Part shown: positions 3,907-64,000 of the stretch, piece by piece
Layout: every line of letters begins with the position of its first letter
Numbering within the stretch: position 1 is the stretch's first letter
Origin: an uncultured Gemmatimonadales bacterium
Lineage (GTDB): Bacteria > Gemmatimonadota > Gemmatimonadetes > Longimicrobiales > RSA9
Direction of reading: 5' to 3'
DNA length: 64,000 nt
Assembly: GCA_963741945.1 (NCBI GenBank)
Contig: CAVUKA010000003.1
Location: forward strand, 529,051-593,050
Program-made: the position numbers and the translations under genes
The notes under the pieces: model-generated
Seen by the model: only the letters and a program-made list of their open reading frames with translations
Database searches by the model: none
What the model was told of the DNA's origin: nothing

Positions 3907-6654
3907 GTGAGCAACGAAAAGAAGAGCCTGGCTTTCGATTCCTACAATGCGGGATACGCGCAGGCCCTCTACGAGGACTACGTGCGCGACCCGTCGTCCG
4001 TGGATGCGCGCTGGGGCGCCATCTTCGGGATGGACCCCGGCCGCACGGGCCTCATTCCCGTATCAAACGGGGGCGGGGCACCGTCGCGGGCGCAGTTGCG
4101 TGCCGCCATGGCGGCCGCGGGGCTGGTGGACGCCTACCGCCTGCACGGTCACAAGGCCGCGCAGCTGGATCCCCTCGGCAGCGCGCCGCCCGGGCATCCC
4201 ATGCTCGCACCGGAGTTCCACGGCATCCGGGCGGACGAGCTGGACGCGATCCCCGCCTCGCTTCTGGGGCTTGGCGACCCGGGCGTCAGCATGCAGACGG
4301 TGCTCGGCTGGCTGCGCCGGACGTACACGGCCACGATCGGCTACGAGTACGAGCACCTGGAGGACCCGACGCGGCGGGAGTGGCTGCGGCGGCGGATCGA
4401 GTCGGGCGAGCACCGGGAGCCTCTGAGCCGGGAAGAGCGGCTGCGGCTCCTGCGTCGCCTTACGGAAGTGGAGTCGCTCGAGCAGTTCCTGCACCGTGCA
4501 TACCTGGGGCAGAAGCGGTTCAGTGTGGAGGGGAACGACATGCTCATCCCCATGCTGGACGTGTCCATCGAGCTGGCCGCGGCCGATGGCGCGCGGGAGG
4601 TGGTGCTGGGGATGGCGCACCGGGGGCGGCTGAACGTGCTGGCCCACGTCATCGGCCGGCCATACGAGAAGATCCTCGGCGAGTTCGAAGGGCAGCAGCT
4701 GGGGAGCGGCACGGGCGACGTGAAGTACCACGTGGGAGCGGATGGCTCCTACCGCACCCGCGAAGGGCAGGAGCTGCCCGTGACCATGGCTCCGAACCCC
4801 AGTCACCTGGAGTTCGTGAACCCGGTGGTGGAAGGGATGGCCCGGGCCAAGCAGACGGACCGGAGCGGGAGGCGAATCGCCCAGGATGTGGCGCGCGCAC
4901 TCCCGATCCTCATGCACGGCGATGCGGCGTTCGCCGGTCAGGGGATCGTGGCCGAGACGCTCAACCTGGCCCGTCTCGCCGGGTACGAGACGGGCGGCAC
5001 GCTCCACATCATCGTGAACAACCAGATCGGCTTCACCACCGAGCCGCAGGAAGACCGGTCCACCAGCTACGCCAGCGACCTGGCCCGCGGCTTCGACATC
5101 CCGGTCTTCCACGTCAACGCGGACCACCCGGAAGCCTGCCTCGCCGTGGTCCGGCTCGCCATGGAGTACCGCGCGCGGTTCCAGGCGGACGTGCTGATCG
5201 ACCTGGTGGGGTACCGCCGCTACGGCCACAACGAGGGCGACGAGCCGGCGTACACGCAGCCGCTCATGTACGCGAAAGTGGCCGAGCAACCGACTGTGCT
5301 GAAGCAGTGGGGGGACCGTCTCGTGGAGGAGGGAACGCTCGACCCGGACGAGCGGGAGCGGATCTGGGACGAGGCGTACGAGAAGCTGACCCGCATCCAG
5401 GCCGAGGTGAAGGAGCAGGCCGCGAAAGCGAAGGGGCAGTCAGCCACGCCGCCCGTGGAGCCCGCCACACTGGAAGCCCCCGTGGACACGGCCGTGGACC
5501 GCGAGCAGCTCCTGGCCTACGACCGGCAGCTGCACGGGTGGCCCGATGACTTCCATCCCAACCCGAAGCTGGAGCGCCAGCTGCAGCGCCGTGCCCGCGC
5601 GCTGCCGGACAACGGCGGTGTGGACTGGGCCCACGCGGAATCCCTTGCGTTCGCATCGCTCCTCGCCGAAGGCACGCCGATCCGCCTTTCGGGGCAGGAC
5701 TCGGTGCGGGGCACGTTCAGCCAGCGCCACCTGACGCTCCGGGACGTGGAGAACGGGAGCGGGTACACGCCGCTCGCGGAGCTGACCGAGGCGCGGGCGC
5801 CGTTCGAGGTCTACAACAGCCCGCTCTCCGAGGCCGGCGTGCTCGGCTTCGAATACGGCTACAGCACGGCCACGCCCGCATCGCTCATCCTGTGGGAAGC
5901 CCAGTTCGGCGACTTCGTCAACAGCGCCGAGGTGATCGTCGATCAGTTCATCGTGGCGGGTCGCGCCAAGTGGGGGCAGGAGAGCCGCCTCGTCCTGCTG
6001 CTGCCGCACGGGTACGAAGGACAGGGGCCCGAGCACTCCAGCGCGCGCATGGAGCGGTTCCTCCAGCTGGCCGCCGAAGACAACATCCGGGTGGCCAACT
6101 GCACCACGCCCGCCCAGTACTTCCACCTGCTGCGGCGGCAGGCGCGTCTCAGCGAGCTGCGGCCTCTGGTGGTGTTCACGCCCAAGAGCCTGCTCCGCCA
6201 CCCGCGTGCGGTGTCCAGCCCGGACGAGCTGAGCCAGGGCCGGTTCAACCTGGTCCTGGACGACACCGAGGCGCGCGAGCGCGAGGCCGACATCCGGCGC
6301 ATCGTCCTCTGCAGCGGCAAGGTCTTCTACGATCTCACCGGGAGCGAGCAGCGAAAGGAGAGCGGCGACGTGGCCGTGGTCCGGGTCGAGCAGCTCTACC
6401 CCTGCCCCGAGGACGCCCTCGTCGAAATCCTGGATTCATACCCGAACGCGCGCGAGCTCGTGTGGACGCAGGAGGAGCCCGCCAACATGGGCGCGTGGAC
6501 CTACATGCGCCCGTGGCTGCAGCGCCTCGCGGGCGACCGCTTCGATGTCGCCTACGCGGGTCGCCCCGCGCGCGCCAGCCCGGCCGAGGGGTACAAGAAG
6601 GCCCACGACGCCCAGCAATCCCGCATCGTCCGCGAAGCGTTCGCGTCGTCGTGA
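3907..6654 (+). CDS. sucA: 2-oxoglutarate dehydrogenase E1 component
   Basis: 915-aa ORF with a GTG start. N-terminus FDSYNAGYAQALYEDYVRDPSSVD, then HRGRLNVLAHVIGRPYEKILGEFEG and MHGDAAFAGQGIVAETLNL, typical of the OGDH E1 family. Confidence 0.93.
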   Translation: MSNEKKSLAFDSYNAGYAQALYEDYVRDPSSVDARWGAIFGMDPGRTGLIPVSNGGGAPSRAQLRAAMAAAGLVDAYRLHGHKAAQLDPLGSAPPGHPMLAPEFHGIRADELDAIPASLLGLGDPGVSMQTVLGWLRRTYTATIGYEYEHLEDPTRREWLRRRIESGEHREPLSREERLRLLRRLTEVESLEQFLHRAYLGQKRFSVEGNDMLIPMLDVSIELAAADGAREVVLGMAHRGRLNVLAHVIGRPYEKILGEFEGQQLGSGTGDVKYHVGADGSYRTREGQELPVTMAPNPSHLEFVNPVVEGMARAKQTDRSGRRIAQDVARALPILMHGDAAFAGQGIVAETLNLARLAGYETGGTLHIIVNNQIGFTTEPQEDRSTSYASDLARGFDIPVFHVNADHPEACLAVVRLAMEYRARFQADVLIDLVGYRRYGHNEGDEPAYTQPLMYAKVAEQPTVLKQWGDRLVEEGTLDPDERERIWDEAYEKLTRIQAEVKEQAAKAKGQSATPPVEPATLEAPVDTAVDREQLLAYDRQLHGWPDDFHPNPKLERQLQRRARALPDNGGVDWAHAESLAFASLLAEGTPIRLSGQDSVRGTFSQRHLTLRDVENGSGYTPLAELTEARAPFEVYNSPLSEAGVLGFEYGYSTATPASLILWEAQFGDFVNSAEVIVDQFIVAGRAKWGQESRLVLLLPHGYEGQGPEHSSARMERFLQLAAEDNIRVANCTTPAQYFHLLRRQARLSELRPLVVFTPKSLLRHPRAVSSPDELSQGRFNLVLDDTEAREREADIRRIVLCSGKVFYDLTGSEQRKESGDVAVVRVEQLYPCPEDALVEILDSYPNARELVWTQEEPANMGAWTYMRPWLQRLAGDRFDVAYAGRPARASPAEGYKKAHDAQQSRIVREAFASS

Positions 6655-31934: not shown

Positions 31935-32285
31935 ATGCGTGGCGGCGTTCGATGGATAGATGAACGGGACCGCGAGCACGATCAGTTCTGGAGGTACACG
32001 TTGGACAGCGCCTATCCGGCCGTCGAAGAACGCCTCGGAACCCTCATCATCGAAGGGCAGCGCCAGGAAGTGTGGGTCCGGTCGACACCCGACACGGACG
32101 GCACCTGGCACAACGCACTCCTCTTCCGGCGTGGCGGGAAGCTGTCTCCGCCCGAGCCCATCGTGGCCGGCGTGGACTGGCACGTTCCGCCGGGGATCGC
32201 CCTCGAGCGCGCCCAGGAGCTGGCCCAGCGCGAGCAGATCCAGTTGTTCCAGCGTGCCCAGCGCCCCCGGCCGCCGCTCTTCTGA
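31935..32285 (+). CDS. Hypothetical protein
   Basis: Internal ATG of track ORF 31698..32285. Third-position GC bias is present. DREHDQFWRYTLDSAYPAVEERLGTLIIEGQRQEVWVRSTPDTDGTWHNALLF. No family recognised. Confidence 0.45.
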   Translation: MRGGVRWIDERDREHDQFWRYTLDSAYPAVEERLGTLIIEGQRQEVWVRSTPDTDGTWHNALLFRRGGKLSPPEPIVAGVDWHVPPGIALERAQELAQREQIQLFQRAQRPRPPLF

Positions 32286-32600
32286 TCACGCGGAGGTGCG
32301 GAGGAAGCGGAGAGCGCGGAGAACAGCGGTCCACGCGGAGGCGCGGAGAACGCGGAGAACGGCCCACGCGGAGGAAGCGGAGAGCGCGGAGAACAGCGGC
32401 CCACGCGAAGGCGCGGAGAACGCGGAGAACGGCCCACGCGGAGGAAGCGGAGAGCGCGGAGAACAGCGGTCCACGCGGAGAGCGCGGAGAGCGCGGAGAA
32501 CGCGGAGAGCGGCCCACGCGGAGGAAGCGGAGAGCGCGGAGAACAGCGGCCCACGCGAAGGCGCGGAGAGCGCGGAGAACAGCGGCCCACGCGCGGGGCG
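32286..32600. repeat. Hierarchical tandem repeat built from GCGGAGARC 9-mers (nine ~33-40 nt units, ~70-80 nt super-period)
   Basis: CCACGCG(G/A)AGG anchors recur near 32286, 32330, 32363, 32400, 32433, 32470, 32512, 32550 and 32585. Two unit types alternate: ...GGAAGCGGAGAGCGCGGAGAACAGCGGY and ...GCGCGGAGAACGCGGAGAACGGC. GAGGAAGCGG recurs at 32301, 32371, 32441 and 32521. Confidence 0.85.
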
Positions 32601-57684: not shown

Positions 57685-59955
57685 TCAGATCGGTCCCGGC
57701 GGGAACGTCTCCAGCAGGCGACGCAGGGCGTCCGCATCCGCCACGGGCGCAGCACAGCTCCGGCCGGCGCAGACGTACGCGCGCGGCGAGTCCCGGGTGA
57801 CCATGGCGCGGAGCGCCTCCGGGAGCGCAGTCAGGGCCGCGTCCGCCGCATCCGCAGCCGCCTCAACATCGGCGGAGTGCGGGGGGAGGCGGCGAACCAC
57901 CATGGCCGGGCGCGCGCTCCGGAGGGCGGCGTCCAGGAGGGCGCTCCGGCCATCCCGCTCCGCGGGCTCCACCACCACCACCGTGGTCACAGGGCCTGTG
58001 ACCCAGCGGACGGCCCGGAACCAGGTGGAAGCGCTGGCGGCGAAGCGCGGGGCCGAGCCCGCGAACGCGGCCGTGACCCGCGCCGCGGCGTCGGCCAGAT
58101 CGTCGTCGCCCTGGAGTGCGGCGAGGCGCGCGAAAGCCATGGCCGCCACGGCGGTGGGAGACGGCTCCGGCGAATCGGTGATCTCGAGCCGGTCCTGGCG
58201 CAGCGCGGCGGGGCCGGCGCCGTCCGCGGGGCGGTCGAGCAGCGCACCGGACGCGTGGCCGAAGCGGGCGAGGATGACGTCCACCGCGGCGCGGGCGCGC
58301 TCGAGCCAGCGGAGGTCCTGGGACCATTCGAACGCATCCAGCAGCGCTGCGGCCGTGTGGGCCTGGTCCGAGAGGTGGATGCCGGCGCCGCTGTCCGCCA
58401 CGCGGTGGTGGAAGCCGACGTCCGGCTCCCACGCGTCCGACCACAGCCGATCCAGCGCACGGAGCGCCGCGTCGCCGGCATCGGGCGTGCCCAGGTGCCG
58501 GGCGGCCGCCAGGTGGCCGGAGGCCACCAGCGACACCCAGCCGGCATAGAGCGTAGCGTCCACGAACGGCCGCGGGCGGCGGTCCCGGACGCCTTTCAGC
58601 GTGCGACGCGCGGCGTCGAGACGCGCGTCCACGTCCGCCACCGGCCGCCCGAGGCGCCGCGCCACCTCGGCGGGCGCCACCGCCTGGAAGAGAACGTGCC
58701 GGTTCGGGTCCAGGTGCATGGCGCTCTCGGGGTCGTCCAGCCCCCAGCGAAGCCGGGCAGCGTCGGCGGTGGCGCGGTGACCAGCGGTGGACGGATCGCC
58801 CGGTTCGGCGTCGCCGGGAGCGAGGGCTTCAGCCACCTCGTCCGCCGTCCAGGTCCAGTAGTCGCCGTCATCGTCGGGGCCCAGGTCGGCGTCCTGCGAC
58901 GCCGGGAACCCGCCGGCGGCCACCAGCTCCGGCGCCACGTCCAGGTAGTGGCCCACGATCCCTTCCGCCGCCGCGGTGAAGCGGGGCTCGGCGAAGACCA
59001 CTGCGGCGCGGGAGAGGATTTCCAGGAGCGGGCCGTTGTCGTAGGCCATCTTCTCGAAATGGGGGATGATCCAGCGGGCGTCGGTGGCGTAGCGGTGGAA
59101 GCCGCCGCCGAGCTGGTCGTGGATTCCGCCGGCCACCATGGCGACGAGCGTGTCCCGCACCATCGCCGCCGCCGAGCCGCTCGCCCGCCCGGGCTCCGCG
59201 GCCCGGTCCAGGAGCAGCGCAAGGCTGCCCACCGCCGGGAACTTGGGCGCGCCGCCGAAGCCGCCGCGACGGGCGTCGTAGACCCGGGCGAGGGCTTCGA
59301 CGCCCGCGTCGACGAGATCGGGCCGCAGCTCGCCCGGCGCCGCTTCCCCCTCCAGCGACGCCGCCAGCCGCTCCCGCACCGCCCCGGCGGCTTCCGCCAC
59401 CCGCGAGCGCTCCTCCCGCCACACCCTGGCCACTTCCCGCAGGACACGGCGGTAGGACGGGCGGCCGTAGCCGTCGCGGGGCGGGAAGTACGTGCCGCCG
59501 TGGAAGACGTCGCCGTCAGGGGTCAGGAAGGCCGTGAGCGGCCACCCGCCCTGCCCCACCAGCGACTGGACCGCGCGCTGGTAGCGGGCGTCCACGTCCG
59601 GCCGCTCGTCCCGGTCCACTTTCACCGGGACATAGAGCTCGTTGATGAGCGCGGCCGTGTCCGGGTCCTCGTAGCTCTCCCGGTCCATGACGTGGCACCA
59701 GTGGCACCAGACCGCGCCGATGTCGAGGAGGACGGGGCGGTCCGTCTCCCGGGCCGTCCGGAACGCGTCCTCGCCCCAGGGGCGCCAGTCCACGGGCTGG
59801 GTGGCGCCGTGACGGAGAAAGGCGCTGGGCGAATCGGCGAGGGGCGAGTCGGCCGGGGGTGTCGTGCCCGGGGGTGTCGTGCCCGGCGAGTCGGCGCCCG
59901 GGGCGTCGCCCGGAGCGGCGTCGTCGGGATCGGGGCGGGGAGCGCGCTCGCTCAC
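57685..59955 (-). CDS. Thioredoxin-domain protein of the YyaL/SSP411 (DUF255 + six-hairpin) family
   Basis: Start set at GTG 59955 (GTGA overlap with the nth stop). PVDWRPWGEDAFRTARETDRPVLLDIGAVWCHWCHVMDRESYEDP...VKVDRDERPDVD...GGWPLTAFLTPDG. Confidence 0.85.
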   Translation of the reverse strand: MSERAPRPDPDDAAPGDAPGADSPGTTPPGTTPPADSPLADSPSAFLRHGATQPVDWRPWGEDAFRTARETDRPVLLDIGAVWCHWCHVMDRESYEDPDTAALINELYVPVKVDRDERPDVDARYQRAVQSLVGQGGWPLTAFLTPDGDVFHGGTYFPPRDGYGRPSYRRVLREVARVWREERSRVAEAAGAVRERLAASLEGEAAPGELRPDLVDAGVEALARVYDARRGGFGGAPKFPAVGSLALLLDRAAEPGRASGSAAAMVRDTLVAMVAGGIHDQLGGGFHRYATDARWIIPHFEKMAYDNGPLLEILSRAAVVFAEPRFTAAAEGIVGHYLDVAPELVAAGGFPASQDADLGPDDDGDYWTWTADEVAEALAPGDAEPGDPSTAGHRATADAARLRWGLDDPESAMHLDPNRHVLFQAVAPAEVARRLGRPVADVDARLDAARRTLKGVRDRRPRPFVDATLYAGWVSLVASGHLAAARHLGTPDAGDAALRALDRLWSDAWEPDVGFHHRVADSGAGIHLSDQAHTAAALLDAFEWSQDLRWLERARAAVDVILARFGHASGALLDRPADGAGPAALRQDRLEITDSPEPSPTAVAAMAFARLAALQGDDDLADAAARVTAAFAGSAPRFAASASTWFRAVRWVTGPVTTVVVVEPAERDGRSALLDAALRSARPAMVVRRLPPHSADVEAAADAADAALTALPEALRAMVTRDSPRAYVCAGRSCAAPVADADALRRLLETFPPGPI

Positions 59956-60653: not shown

Positions 60654-62452
60654 GGTCTCCCGAAGTGCGACAGCACCCGCTCCAGCTCCCACGTGTTGAT
60701 CACGTCCTCCGGCTCCAGCCACCCCTTCCTGGCCATGGACACGCCGTACACCACGGCGCCGAGACCGGCGGTGGAGTGGGCGTCCGGGTTGATGGCGCAG
60801 CGGATGCCCAGCGACTTCGCCCGGGGCCAGTGTCGCCAGTCCAGGTCCAGCCGCGCGGGGTCCGCGTTGATCTCCACCGCCGCGCCGCTCTCCGCCGCGG
60901 CCTCCAGCACCGCGTCCACGTCCACGCCGTACGCCTCGCGCGTGAGCAGCAGGCGGCCGGTGGCGTGGCCGAGGATCCCCCGCCGCAGGTGCCGGACCGC
61001 CGTGGTCACGCGCGCAGTCATGGTCTCCGGCGCCATCTGGAACCCCGAGTGGACGGAGCCGACCACGTAGTCCAGAGAGTCCAGGACGTCGTCGGGGTAG
61101 TCGAGGCGCCCGTCCGCGAGGATGTCCGCTTCGGCCCCCTTCAGGAGCCGCAGCTCCGCCCCGTGCTCCGCGTTCCACGCGTCGATCTCCTCGTGCTGAC
61201 GCCGGAGCTGCTCGACGCTCAGCCCGCCCGCGTACGACGCGGCGGGAGAATGGTCCGCGATGCCCAGGTAGCGCCAGCCCCGGTCCCTCGCCGCGGCGGC
61301 CATCTCCGCCACGGTCGCCGTGCCGTCGGACCACGTGGTGTGGCAGTGGAACGTGCCCCGGAGGTCGTCGTAGTCCACCAGCCGCGGCAGGCGGTGCTCC
61401 GCCGCCGCCGCCACTTCGCCCCTCCCCTCCCGCAGCTCCGGCGGCACCCGGTCCAGGTCGAGGGCGCGGTAGAGCGCTTCCTCGTCGTCCACGGCGATGC
61501 GGGAATCGCCGCGCCAGAGGCCGTCGGCGGCGAGGCGGAGGCCGCGCGCTTCCGCCCGCGCGGCCAGCGCCGCCACGTGCGACGCGGAGCCCGTGTCCAC
61601 CACCCTGGCCGCCGCCGCGGCTTCCGGCCGCACGCAGCGCACGCGCACCGCCATGCCGTCCGCGAGCGCGCCCTCGATGCGGCTGCCATCGACGCGGCGG
61701 ACGTCCCGGAGCACGGGGAGTCCGGCGACGTCGTCGAGCACTGCGTCGCATGCTTCCGACACCGCGAGAAGATCCACGGCACCCGCGGTCTCACACCGCC
61801 GCCGGACTTCGCCCGTCAGCCCCACGTCCAGGACCGGCAGCGTCTCGAGGTGGCCCACCAGCCGCGCGGCCGAGGCCAGCGCTCCCGGCTGGCGACGGCG
61901 GCCGGCGCTCCGCTCGACGAACGGGATGCCGTCCAGGATCCGCTGCTGTGTGGCGGGGCCGAAGCCCTTGAGCGCCGCGATTCGCCCGGCCGTGGCCGCT
62001 TCCCGAAGCGCTGCGAGGGAATCGATCCCGAGGCTGTCGACGAGCGTCCGGACGCGCTTGGGCCCGAGTCCCGAGACCCTGCGCAGCTGCGCCTGCCCCG
62101 CCGGCGTCTCGGCCCGGAGCCGCTCGTGCACCCCGGAGCGGCCCGTCTCCACCAGCTCCCGGAGCACGGCCAGCAGCCCGGGGCCCACGCCATCCACCAG
62201 CGCCAGCTCGCCGGAGCCGAGCGCCGCCGCCAGGTCGCCGTCGAGCTCGTCCAGGACGCGGGCGCCAGTGCGGTACGCGGCCGCGCGGAACGGGTCATCG
62301 TCCTGGAGCCGGAGCAGCGCCGCGATCTCGTCCAGGACCAGCGCGGCCACGTGGCGGTCCACGCCGGGGCCGGTCGCCCCCGGGCCCGCCGCCCCCGGCC
62401 CGGCCGCCCCCGGGCCTGTCGCCGCCGGCCCCGCCGCCGGGACTTCAGCCAC
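60650..62452 (-). CDS. Family X DNA polymerase with a C-terminal PHP domain (PolX)
   Basis: 600-aa ORF with a GTG start. HhH region LRRVSGLGPKRVRTLVDSLGI...LKGFGPATQQRI. PHP region GTFHCHTTWSDGTATVAEMA...YLGIADHSP...GSVHSG. A Gly/Pro/Ala 5-residue repeat sits at the N-terminus. Confidence 0.85.
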   Translation of the reverse strand: MAEVPAAGPAATGPGAAGPGAAGPGATGPGVDRHVAALVLDEIAALLRLQDDDPFRAAAYRTGARVLDELDGDLAAALGSGELALVDGVGPGLLAVLRELVETGRSGVHERLRAETPAGQAQLRRVSGLGPKRVRTLVDSLGIDSLAALREAATAGRIAALKGFGPATQQRILDGIPFVERSAGRRRQPGALASAARLVGHLETLPVLDVGLTGEVRRRCETAGAVDLLAVSEACDAVLDDVAGLPVLRDVRRVDGSRIEGALADGMAVRVRCVRPEAAAAARVVDTGSASHVAALAARAEARGLRLAADGLWRGDSRIAVDDEEALYRALDLDRVPPELREGRGEVAAAAEHRLPRLVDYDDLRGTFHCHTTWSDGTATVAEMAAAARDRGWRYLGIADHSPAASYAGGLSVEQLRRQHEEIDAWNAEHGAELRLLKGAEADILADGRLDYPDDVLDSLDYVVGSVHSGFQMAPETMTARVTTAVRHLRRGILGHATGRLLLTREAYGVDVDAVLEAAAESGAAVEINADPARLDLDWRHWPRAKSLGIRCAINPDAHSTAGLGAVVYGVSMARKGWLEPEDVINTWELERVLSHFGRP

Positions 62453-63230
62453 TCGCCGGGTCCAGGTCCCAGAAGCAGAGCGACGCCAGCTTCAACAGCT
62501 CCGCCGCGGTCTCCACCGAGTACAGCCGCTCCATCTCCCCGCCCGGGAGCGTGCTCCGGAAGTCCTCGCCCCCGGGGCGGGCATCGGCCTCCGCCCAGTG
62601 CGGCACGTCGTCCAGCACGCCAGTGACGCTCACGATGCTGAACCCCGGCCGCCCCGACCGCACGCCCAGCGGCATGAGCACGTGCAGCTCGGCGGGCGCG
62701 TCCTCCGGCTCCACCAGCACCCAGAAGAAGCCGTCCGCCGGCTCCGGCCGCATCCCGGGCGCGGGCGAGGCCCACACCAGGTTCCGCGGCAGCTGCACGT
62801 AGCCGGCCGGCGCGGGCGCGGTGAGCGTCCAGTCGCCCACGCGCGTCACGTCGTCCAGCAGCCAGCGCAGCCGCCCGTCGCCGACCTCCACCGCGCGCTT
62901 CCCCTCCCGCCAGAAGTGGAACGCGTGGTAGAGTACACGGCCATACTGGCGGAGCGCTCCGTTCCCCGCGGGACCCGCGGCCTCGGCGACATCGGCTGCT
63001 TCCGCCGCCCGGGTGCCTTCCGGCGCCGATGCGCCGGCCATCCCCTCGTCGCCCGCTATGGCGTGGAGCAGCCGCCCCACGCTCGTCAGGAAGAGGAAGC
63101 GATCCGGGTCGGCGACGGCCATGCCCCGCGCCTCAGCCTCCTCGGCGATGGGCGGAAACAGGCGCTCATCAATGGATTCCGCCCCGAACACGAGGTGGTA
63201 CGGGCTGGGTCGCTCTGGCGGCTCGGTCAT
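62445..63230 (-). CDS. Hypothetical protein, first gene of the PolX-nth-YyaL operon
   Basis: 261-aa ORF overlapping the PolX start by 8 nt. No family recognised. Confidence 0.55.
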   Translation of the reverse strand: MTEPPERPSPYHLVFGAESIDERLFPPIAEEAEARGMAVADPDRFLFLTSVGRLLHAIAGDEGMAGASAPEGTRAAEAADVAEAAGPAGNGALRQYGRVLYHAFHFWREGKRAVEVGDGRLRWLLDDVTRVGDWTLTAPAPAGYVQLPRNLVWASPAPGMRPEPADGFFWVLVEPEDAPAELHVLMPLGVRSGRPGFSIVSVTGVLDDVPHWAEADARPGGEDFRSTLPGGEMERLYSVETAAELLKLASLCFWDLDPASG

Positions 63231-63338
63231 GGCTCACATCATAGGCCCGAGTGGGGCGGGCGTCACGGGGGGGCGCGGCCTCCCCGGGCGACGGCTGTCA
63301 CGGGGCAAGGACCCGTTCAAGATTCCTGCCGGGGCAGC

Positions 63339-63397
63339 GGGCGGCGGGCGGCGGGCGGCGGGCGGCGGCGGGGGGGGGGCGGCGGGGCGGGGGCGGG
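63339..63397. repeat. G-rich tract: GGGCGGC x4 followed by a G10 homopolymer and further G-runs
   Basis: GGGCGGC at 63339, 63346, 63353 and 63360. Ten consecutive G at 63370-63379, then GGCGGGGCGGGGGCGGG. Confidence 0.85.
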
Positions 63398-63507
63398 CCC
63401 GCGACTGAACGATCCCCGGCGGATAATGCCGTCCATCGTACACTGGACCTGCGCCGGGCCCCCGACTGAACGATCCACGGCAAATAGTGCCGCCGATCGT
63501 ACACTGG
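63395..63507. repeat. Two copies (61-nt spacing) of a ~50-nt hairpin-forming element
   Basis: GACTGAACGATCCCCGGCGGATAATGCCGTCCATCGTACACTGG (63403-63446) versus GACTGAACGATCCACGGCAAATAGTGCCGCCGATCGTACACTGG (63464-63507). Both are preceded by GGGCCC. Stems ACGATC/GATCGT and CGGC/GCCG. Confidence 0.8.
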
Positions 63508-63562
63508 CACACGTCGGGCGCCGGGCACCGCGATCCGCCAGGCACCGCGACCCGCCGGCCCC

Positions 63563-64000
63563 CTACACCGCCCTGGCCACGGCCTCCGCCTGGACCACCT
63601 GGAGCGGGCGACGCTTGAAGAGCCGCCGTAGCGCCGCGAGGGTCCCCTGCCGCCGCACGAGCACCAGGCACACTCCGCCGTCGGCGTCCACCCCCTCCAC
63701 GAGGTCGACGAACGTCACATCGCCGAGCCCGGCGGGCGGGTCGATGGCGTAGCGGCGGCCGTGGAGCTCGAACTCGAGGACCGGGGTCGTGCCGTGGGCC
63801 GGGGTCGTGCCGTGGGCCGGAGTCGTGCCGTGCGCCGCGGTGGCGCCACGGCCCGGGACGGCGGGCTGCCCGGCGTCGCCGATCTCGATCTCGATGAAGA
63901 GGTGGCCATCGGCGTCGAACACGCCCGGCGCCACGGGCTCGCCGGAGCGGAAGAACCAGGGGTCGAAGGGGTCGCCCTGGAGCCGCTTGAAGTTCTCGTC
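63563..64000 (-). CDS. Hypothetical protein, C-terminal 145 codons (5-prime end beyond window end)
   Basis: The frame stays open to position 64000 (DENFKRLQGDPFDPWFFRSGEPVAPGVFDADGHLFIEIEIGD...). Contains HGTTPA x3 encoded by an 18-nt tandem repeat. Confidence 0.5.
   Translation of the reverse strand, partial: DENFKRLQGDPFDPWFFRSGEPVAPGVFDADGHLFIEIEIGDAGQPAVPGRGATAAHGTTPAHGTTPAHGTTPVLEFELHGRRYAIDPPAGLGDVTFVDLVEGVDADGGVCLVLVRRQGTLAALRRLFKRRPLQVVQAEAVARAV

Follow-up and report, generated by a model that had tools for sequence, protein, structure and literature searches.

The stretch of DNA analysed here, called the window throughout, comprises 64 kb with a G+C content of 71.5%; the names of homologs place it in a Gemmatimonadota / Longimicrobiales genome. 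An intergenic region of 332 nt (63231-63562) holds the features of interest, and, as originally described, it lies between two same-strand genes, the flanking genes all being encoded on the minus strand. On its upstream side, translation revealed the 3' part of a metallopeptidase-like gene (PF06262-type family; 63563-64000, minus strand) ending with the stop codon TAG at 63565-63563. Homologs of this protein showed 36-48% identity, and one of them was named metallopeptidase family protein / PF06262. On the downstream side, an operon begins with a gene for a 261-aa protein (62445-63230, minus strand), the N-terminus of which aligns with the consensus of 269 homologs. No Pfam domain was detected in the 261-aa protein. 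All 269 homologs apparently belong to the Gemmatimonadota, and about 60 positions were found invariant among them. The gene is followed on the minus strand by PolX (62452-60650; HHH_8, DNA_pol_B_thumb and PHP domains), nth, located between PolX and YyaL, and YyaL (DUF255; 60069-57685). The end of the gene for the 261-aa protein and the start of PolX overlap by 8 nt, likewise in the related loci L001 and L032. The 261-aa protein is a widespread, uncharacterised conserved partner of repair genes, and in Longimicrobiales its gene is coupled to PolX in translation.

The gene order SNF transporter, metallopeptidase-like, 261-aa protein, (PolX), nth, YyaL, HD recurs in metagenome-assembled genomes of Longimicrobiales, and the metallopeptidase-like gene precedes the gene for the 261-aa protein in L002, L003, L032, L035, and L055. 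PolX is variably present in the operon, with nth following directly after the gene for the 261-aa protein in L035 (6001-7617) and L055 (3001-4511). In L033/L034 (6001-9184) the position of PolX holds a 324-aa opposite-strand open reading frame and a 217-aa open reading frame, which suggests that PolX was lost or decayed there. The same relative (L033/L034) carries a hybrid histidine kinase/response-regulator gene on the opposite strand (3908-5743) between the genes for the metallopeptidase-like and the 261-aa protein; because of this inserted gene, the junction of the two is regarded as a recurrent rearrangement site.

Read in sense direction (minus strand), the intergenic region consists of the stop codon, 17-nt repeats, copy 2 and copy 1 of a palindromic unit, a 65-nt C-rich tract, a 20-nt block, approximately 47 nt of other sequence, a promoter, and the ATG of the 261-aa gene. 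Most of the spacer is made up of three tandem arrays, with periods of 17 nt (2.2 copies), 61 nt (2 copies), and 7 nt (9.9 copies). The 17-nt array CGCCAGGCACCGCGACC, which had been predicted beside the hairpins, was recovered by Tandem Repeats Finder (TRF) and the repeat search at 63519-63556, with 2.2 copies and 90% matches. The period-7 array is a low-complexity (GGGCGGC)n tract at 63332-63396 (TRF, 9.9 copies). Its plus strand is G-rich with G-quadruplex motifs, and the sense RNA is C-rich and G-poor. The longest cluster of G-quadruplex motifs in the window (63331-63397) was found here, with the motifs on the template strand of the flanking genes, and positions 63328-63397 form the most G/C-skewed 70-mer of the window (G-C = +0.50 on the plus strand, C-G = +0.50 in minus-strand RNA).

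The remaining array is a 53-nt direct repeat, found by a repeat search of the window at 63394-63446 (copy 1) and 63455-63507 (copy 2) with 87% identity and a start-to-start distance of 61 nt. This agrees with the two copies of about 50 nt, 61 nt apart, of the original prediction, and CGGGCCC opens both, in line with the GGGCCC noted before each. A 45-nt degenerate pattern derived from both copies matched only these two places in the window, with 0.00 matches expected from 100 shuffles. The copies represent a 61-nt unit duplicated in tandem and not independent occurrences. Within the unit lies an imperfect palindrome of 37 nt, and the flanks CGACTGAACGATCC and ATCGTACACTGG are sharply bounded and perfectly conserved between the copies. 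The nested palindrome ACGAT(C)-..-CGGC-loop-GCCG-..-(G)ATCGT, by which each copy was said to fold, is present in both, but the complete 6-bp outer stem was found in copy 2 only, which alone matched ACGATC-N10-30-GATCGT. Copy 2 is the well-formed palindrome, with 14 bp in minus-strand RNA, while copy 1 is degraded, with an outer stem of 5 bp and an inner stem of 4-5 bp. A coding reading of the repeat was rejected because a 61-nt period is not divisible by three.

The folding stability of both copies was compared with that of shuffled sequences. Copy 2 folded with -28.4 kcal/mol on the minus strand (z = -2.74) and with z = -1.45 on the plus strand. Copy 1 was no more stable than its shuffles (z = -0.15 minus, -0.12 plus); the pair together reached z = -2.11 on the minus strand, and the whole spacer did not exceed its shuffles on either strand. 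Among 41-nt windows of the sequence, copy 1 ranked at the median and copy 2 in the top 3.5% (minus) and top 23% (plus). As reference for covariation we used the minimum-energy fold of copy 2 itself, comprising 14 minus-strand pairs including one G-U. Eleven of these 14 pairs are invariant and hence uninformative, and the other three are lost or weaker in copy 1. Copy 1 forms none of these three variable pairs on the minus strand; on the plus strand, one pair is A-U in copy 2 but G-U in copy 1, another is lost in copy 1, and the third forms in neither copy. Comparing the two copies, no pair with a pairing-preserving change on both sides was observed, so that covariation, which had been proposed as a check, was not found. 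The two copies differ at six positions, four of which are paired in the 14-bp fold of copy 2, and none of these changes is compensated. The view that structure rather than sequence is conserved is not supported, given these uncompensated changes and the z value near -0.1 of copy 1. The underlying count, five of six differences at unpaired positions, is true for the structure that both copies still form and for that structure only. The argument is circular, because the positions called unpaired are those where copy 1 fails to pair. Furthermore, the better-folding strand differs between the inner stems of the two copies, which fits a decaying DNA palindrome better than an RNA under selection.

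The hairpins had been placed in the leader of the repair operon. A consensus scan for sigma-70-like promoters identified GTGACG-17 nt-TATGAT at 63238-63266 on the minus strand as the probable promoter of the operon for the 261-aa protein, PolX, nth, and YyaL. This site showed 9 of 12 consensus matches, no such site occurred in 50 shuffles, and it was the only promoter-like site in 62900-64000. The predicted -10 box ends 7 nt before the ATG of the gene for the 261-aa protein. The arrangement TnGACG-N17-TAT(G/C)AT-N6-7-ATG was found at this gene in five relatives (L001, L003, L004, L032, and L054); promoter-like sequence and start together occupy 63228-63266 (minus strand) in the window, 45-93 in L001, approximately 3055-3095 in L003, approximately 5942-5980 in L032, and approximately 735-777 in L054. 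The upstream neighbour in L054 is a different, divergently transcribed gene, and because of this the motif belongs to the gene for the 261-aa protein and not to the preceding coding sequence. L002 kept the TATCAT box, with no clear -35 region. The -35 hexamer TAGACG of L003 and L004 includes the stop codon TAG of the gene before it. A TANNNT motif 4-9 nt before the start codon is rare among the other large open reading frames of the window. For the class Gemmatimonadetes, a low Shine-Dalgarno figure (22) is given in one published survey (PMC10783764). The arrangement suggests that transcription of the operon would start at or beside the ATG and that its mRNA may be leaderless or near-leaderless. 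Since the promoter abuts the ATG, the hairpins would lie upstream of the probable transcription start and outside the 5' leader. They are located 128-300 nt upstream of the predicted -35 region, within the 3' region of the preceding gene, and their placement in the operon leader is not supported. The conserved promoter is the more useful by-product of this analysis, as it fixes where transcription of the repair operon probably begins.

The corresponding junction was compared among relatives. Its length was 23 nt in L035, approximately 26 nt in L002, approximately 35 nt in L003/L004, 78 nt in L032, and 117 nt in L055, and the hairpin element was absent from the orthologous junction of each of these readable relatives. 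Absence from the orthologous region of close relatives had been named beforehand as an observation that would speak against the element. From the two copies we derived a profile HMM and a covariance model (R1, 13 pairs); the copies themselves scored 57-58 bits with the HMM and 74-75 bits with R1. Searching approximately 86 kb of related loci with the covariance model and nhmmer gave no match, the best score being 14.6 bits versus 74-75 for the true copies. A metagenome scan with protein alignment yielded 3 loci.

The closest relative, L001, shows 78% protein identity. Its contig provides 90 nt upstream and begins inside the CGCCGCCCGCCG tract, short of the hairpin region. In its sample, no homolog of the upstream protein closer than 48% identity was found. 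L001 has the block CCGGCAGGA(A/T)TCTTGAACGG in common with the window, together with an equivalent C-rich tract. Because tract and 20-nt block occur in both, the enlarged spacer predates the split of the two organisms. Judged from this comparison, the spacer is not of very recent origin, and some of it may have a function. In the window the block reads CCGGCAGGAATCTTGAACGG (63314-63333, minus strand), and direct comparison with positions 1-93 of L001 showed 19 of 20 positions to be the same; it may represent a candidate binding site. Around the block, the spacer of L001 is diverged and of other length. In the window the block forms the 5' arm of a hairpin, the 3' arm of which is not conserved in L001.

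We regard the hairpin pair, with a probability of roughly 0.55, as a by-product of local sequence expansion and not as a dedicated regulatory element of the repair operon. Probably, the feature is an ordinary one rather than a novel regulatory RNA. A once-compact junction, reaching from the stop codon of the metallopeptidase-like gene to the operon promoter, would have grown to the 332-nt spacer in this lineage. A 61-nt stretch that happened to hold a palindrome would have been duplicated in place, and copy 1 would subsequently have gathered stem-weakening changes. Such a history resembles minisatellite-like intergenic arrays in the head-to-tail 61-nt period among arrays of 7, 17, and 18 nt; unlike them, there are two copies only, already 13% diverged, and the unit itself is palindromic. 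The element fits an ordinary intergenic tandem duplication, one of many local ones in this genome. Set against this, the perfectly conserved flanks and arms may be due to selection no less than to a recent origin, and copy 2 exceeds its shuffles in stability on the sense strand.

If transcribed at all, both copies would belong to the minus-strand transcript of the upstream gene, as its 3' untranslated tail. Only a passive role is considered likely, above all for copy 2, which might act as a 3'-end stem-loop, and the C-rich, G-poor tract of approximately 65 nt that follows would by its composition be a possible Rho-loading site. Stem-loop and tract together might terminate or stabilise the transcript of the upstream gene ahead of the operon promoter. 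The region could at most insulate the upstream gene from the operon. In composition, this C-rich, G-poor sense RNA past a stop codon and before the next promoter resembles a Rho-dependent terminator, from which it differs in that the tract is a simple 7-nt repeat, possibly slippage debris. Hairpins are no defining part of Rho-dependent terminators. With its sense-strand stem-loops 60-170 nt after the stop codon the region also resembles an intrinsic terminator; this class was rejected, as no U-run follows either hairpin and 0 terminator-like sites were found on both strands of 62900-64000. Since the U-run is missing, any terminator role would have to be of the Rho-dependent or hairpin-only kind.

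A mobile or dispersed REP-like or MITE-like palindrome of low copy number, inserted at the junction and then duplicated, with more copies elsewhere in the source genome, is a possible but unlikely origin. REPs of Proteobacteria occur in tens to hundreds of dispersed copies per genome and often carry a conserved 5' tetranucleotide that serves as recognition site of a RAYT transposase. Like REP/BIME elements, the unit is an imperfect palindrome of approximately 35-40 nt, extragenic after a stop codon and between same-strand genes, with adjacent copies and a possible 3' stem-loop on the mRNA. Its absence from the relatives' orthologous junctions is as expected of an insertion, and the sharply bounded flanks of both copies point in the same direction. 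Against this reading, and unlike REP/BIME elements, only one locus with two direct copies was found in the window and in a pattern scan of the GTDB species representatives. In the rest of the 64-kb window, no further copy was detected by the degenerate pattern, blastn-short, nhmmer, or an unfiltered covariance-model search; the best other match, with at most 17 bits, was the palindrome's own reverse strand. An exact 14-nt match within coding sequence (32186-32199) was attributed to chance. For the GTDB scan the pattern TGAACGATCC-N18-20-ATCGTACA, needing 18 exact bases, was used. It gave 27 matches, approximately the number expected by chance, as single matches in unrelated taxa with the centre unlike that of the element. 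Several of the 27 fell into one conserved coding sequence of unrelated phyla, one equally dissimilar match was located in a Gemmatimonadales genome, and at this requirement of 18 exact bases no Longimicrobiales genome was matched. Viral contigs gave 17 chance matches and no real one, blastn against plasmids only short GC-rich matches (E at least 0.07), and blastn against phages no match. Neither terminal inverted repeats nor a target-site duplication were recognised, and by eye no GTAG was found beside the stems. A MITE proper was rejected, since the only long inverted pairs spanning the spacer are low-complexity GC-rich sequences (73-81% matches) and no second locus was found in the window or the GTDB pattern scan. 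Among the roles that had been offered for the element, only insertion-like extra sequence, the weakest option, survives, and regulation in an operon leader found no support.

It appears improbable that the palindromes are binding sites of a dimeric DNA-binding protein, spaced by 61 bp and forming an upstream activating or looping operator pair for the PolX/nth operon. The arms G(A/T)ACGATC are the same in both copies and the centre varies, the sites would lie at approximately -190 and -255 from the probable transcription start, and DNA-repair genes are located downstream. However, 15 nt separate the arms in copy 2, a large distance for one dimeric site, and the nesting of the palindrome is that of a hairpin. 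Copy 1 has one damaged arm (CATCGT), the candidate sites do not overlap the promoter, and the relatives kept the promoter with no such sites. The arm motif GWACGATC is not enriched in the window (5 matches versus 3.7 expected). Upstream of mutS, an exact intergenic palindrome ATCGT-GCGGA-ACGAT occurs at 1583-1597 (1 match versus 0.04 expected); its arms stand in the opposite order to those of the hairpin element and its architecture is unrelated. The link to this site had been called weak from the start, rightly so: the site exists, but with reversed arms and an arm motif lacking enrichment. A promoter-proximal repressor operator of the SOS/LexA type was rejected in view of the distance of the copies from the -35 region and of the arm motif, and by eye a LexA-type GAAC-N4-GTTC box is absent. 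Also by eye, the core and inverse-core sites misfit an integron attC, and a sigma-54 promoter in the 17-nt repeat was discarded, with the GG/GC spacing off by one and one candidate on the wrong strand.

It is distinctly improbable that the locus represents either paired upstream sites for a lineage-specific PolX/nth regulator or the founding locus of a low-copy Longimicrobiales palindrome family. In either case, the palindromes would have arrived with the spacer now lying between the operon and the gene before it.

That the element is a cis-acting leader RNA, of the attenuator or riboswitch-like type, or gives rise to an independent small RNA is highly improbable: the minus strand of copy 2 and of the pair folds somewhat better than shuffles, but the element is not located between predicted start site and start codon, the conserved and sole promoter-like site of 62900-64000 abuts the ATG, covariation and enhanced stability of the whole spacer are missing, the relatives lack the element, and Rfam (E up to 10, 62900-64000) gave no curated-family match above noise, only a sub-threshold chrB-b hit elsewhere in the spacer (13.4 bits versus a gathering threshold of 36.5).

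If the reading as a by-product of local expansion holds, the locus shows how a compact junction in a high-GC Gemmatimonadota genome swelled more than tenfold via local tandem duplications, and how a recent palindrome duplication can mimic a conserved structure.

Tandem arrays were also observed elsewhere in the window, where TRF at a score of at least 50 gave 22 rows in 64 kb, overlapping rows representing the same array. In-frame arrays within coding sequence were found at 63781-63841 in the upstream gene (18-nt unit, 3.4 copies, encoding HGTTPA three times), at 62367-62438 in the N-terminus of PolX (15-nt unit), and at 59853-59886 in the N-terminus of YyaL (15-nt unit). Short tandem duplication is frequent in the source genome, coding sequence included. 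Another repeat-swollen intergenic region is a 288-nt array at 32298-32585, starting 13 nt past a stop codon (TGA at 32283-32285) and composed of GCGGAGAAC-like 9-mers arranged in higher-order units of 70-80 nt (3.9 copies, 87% matches).
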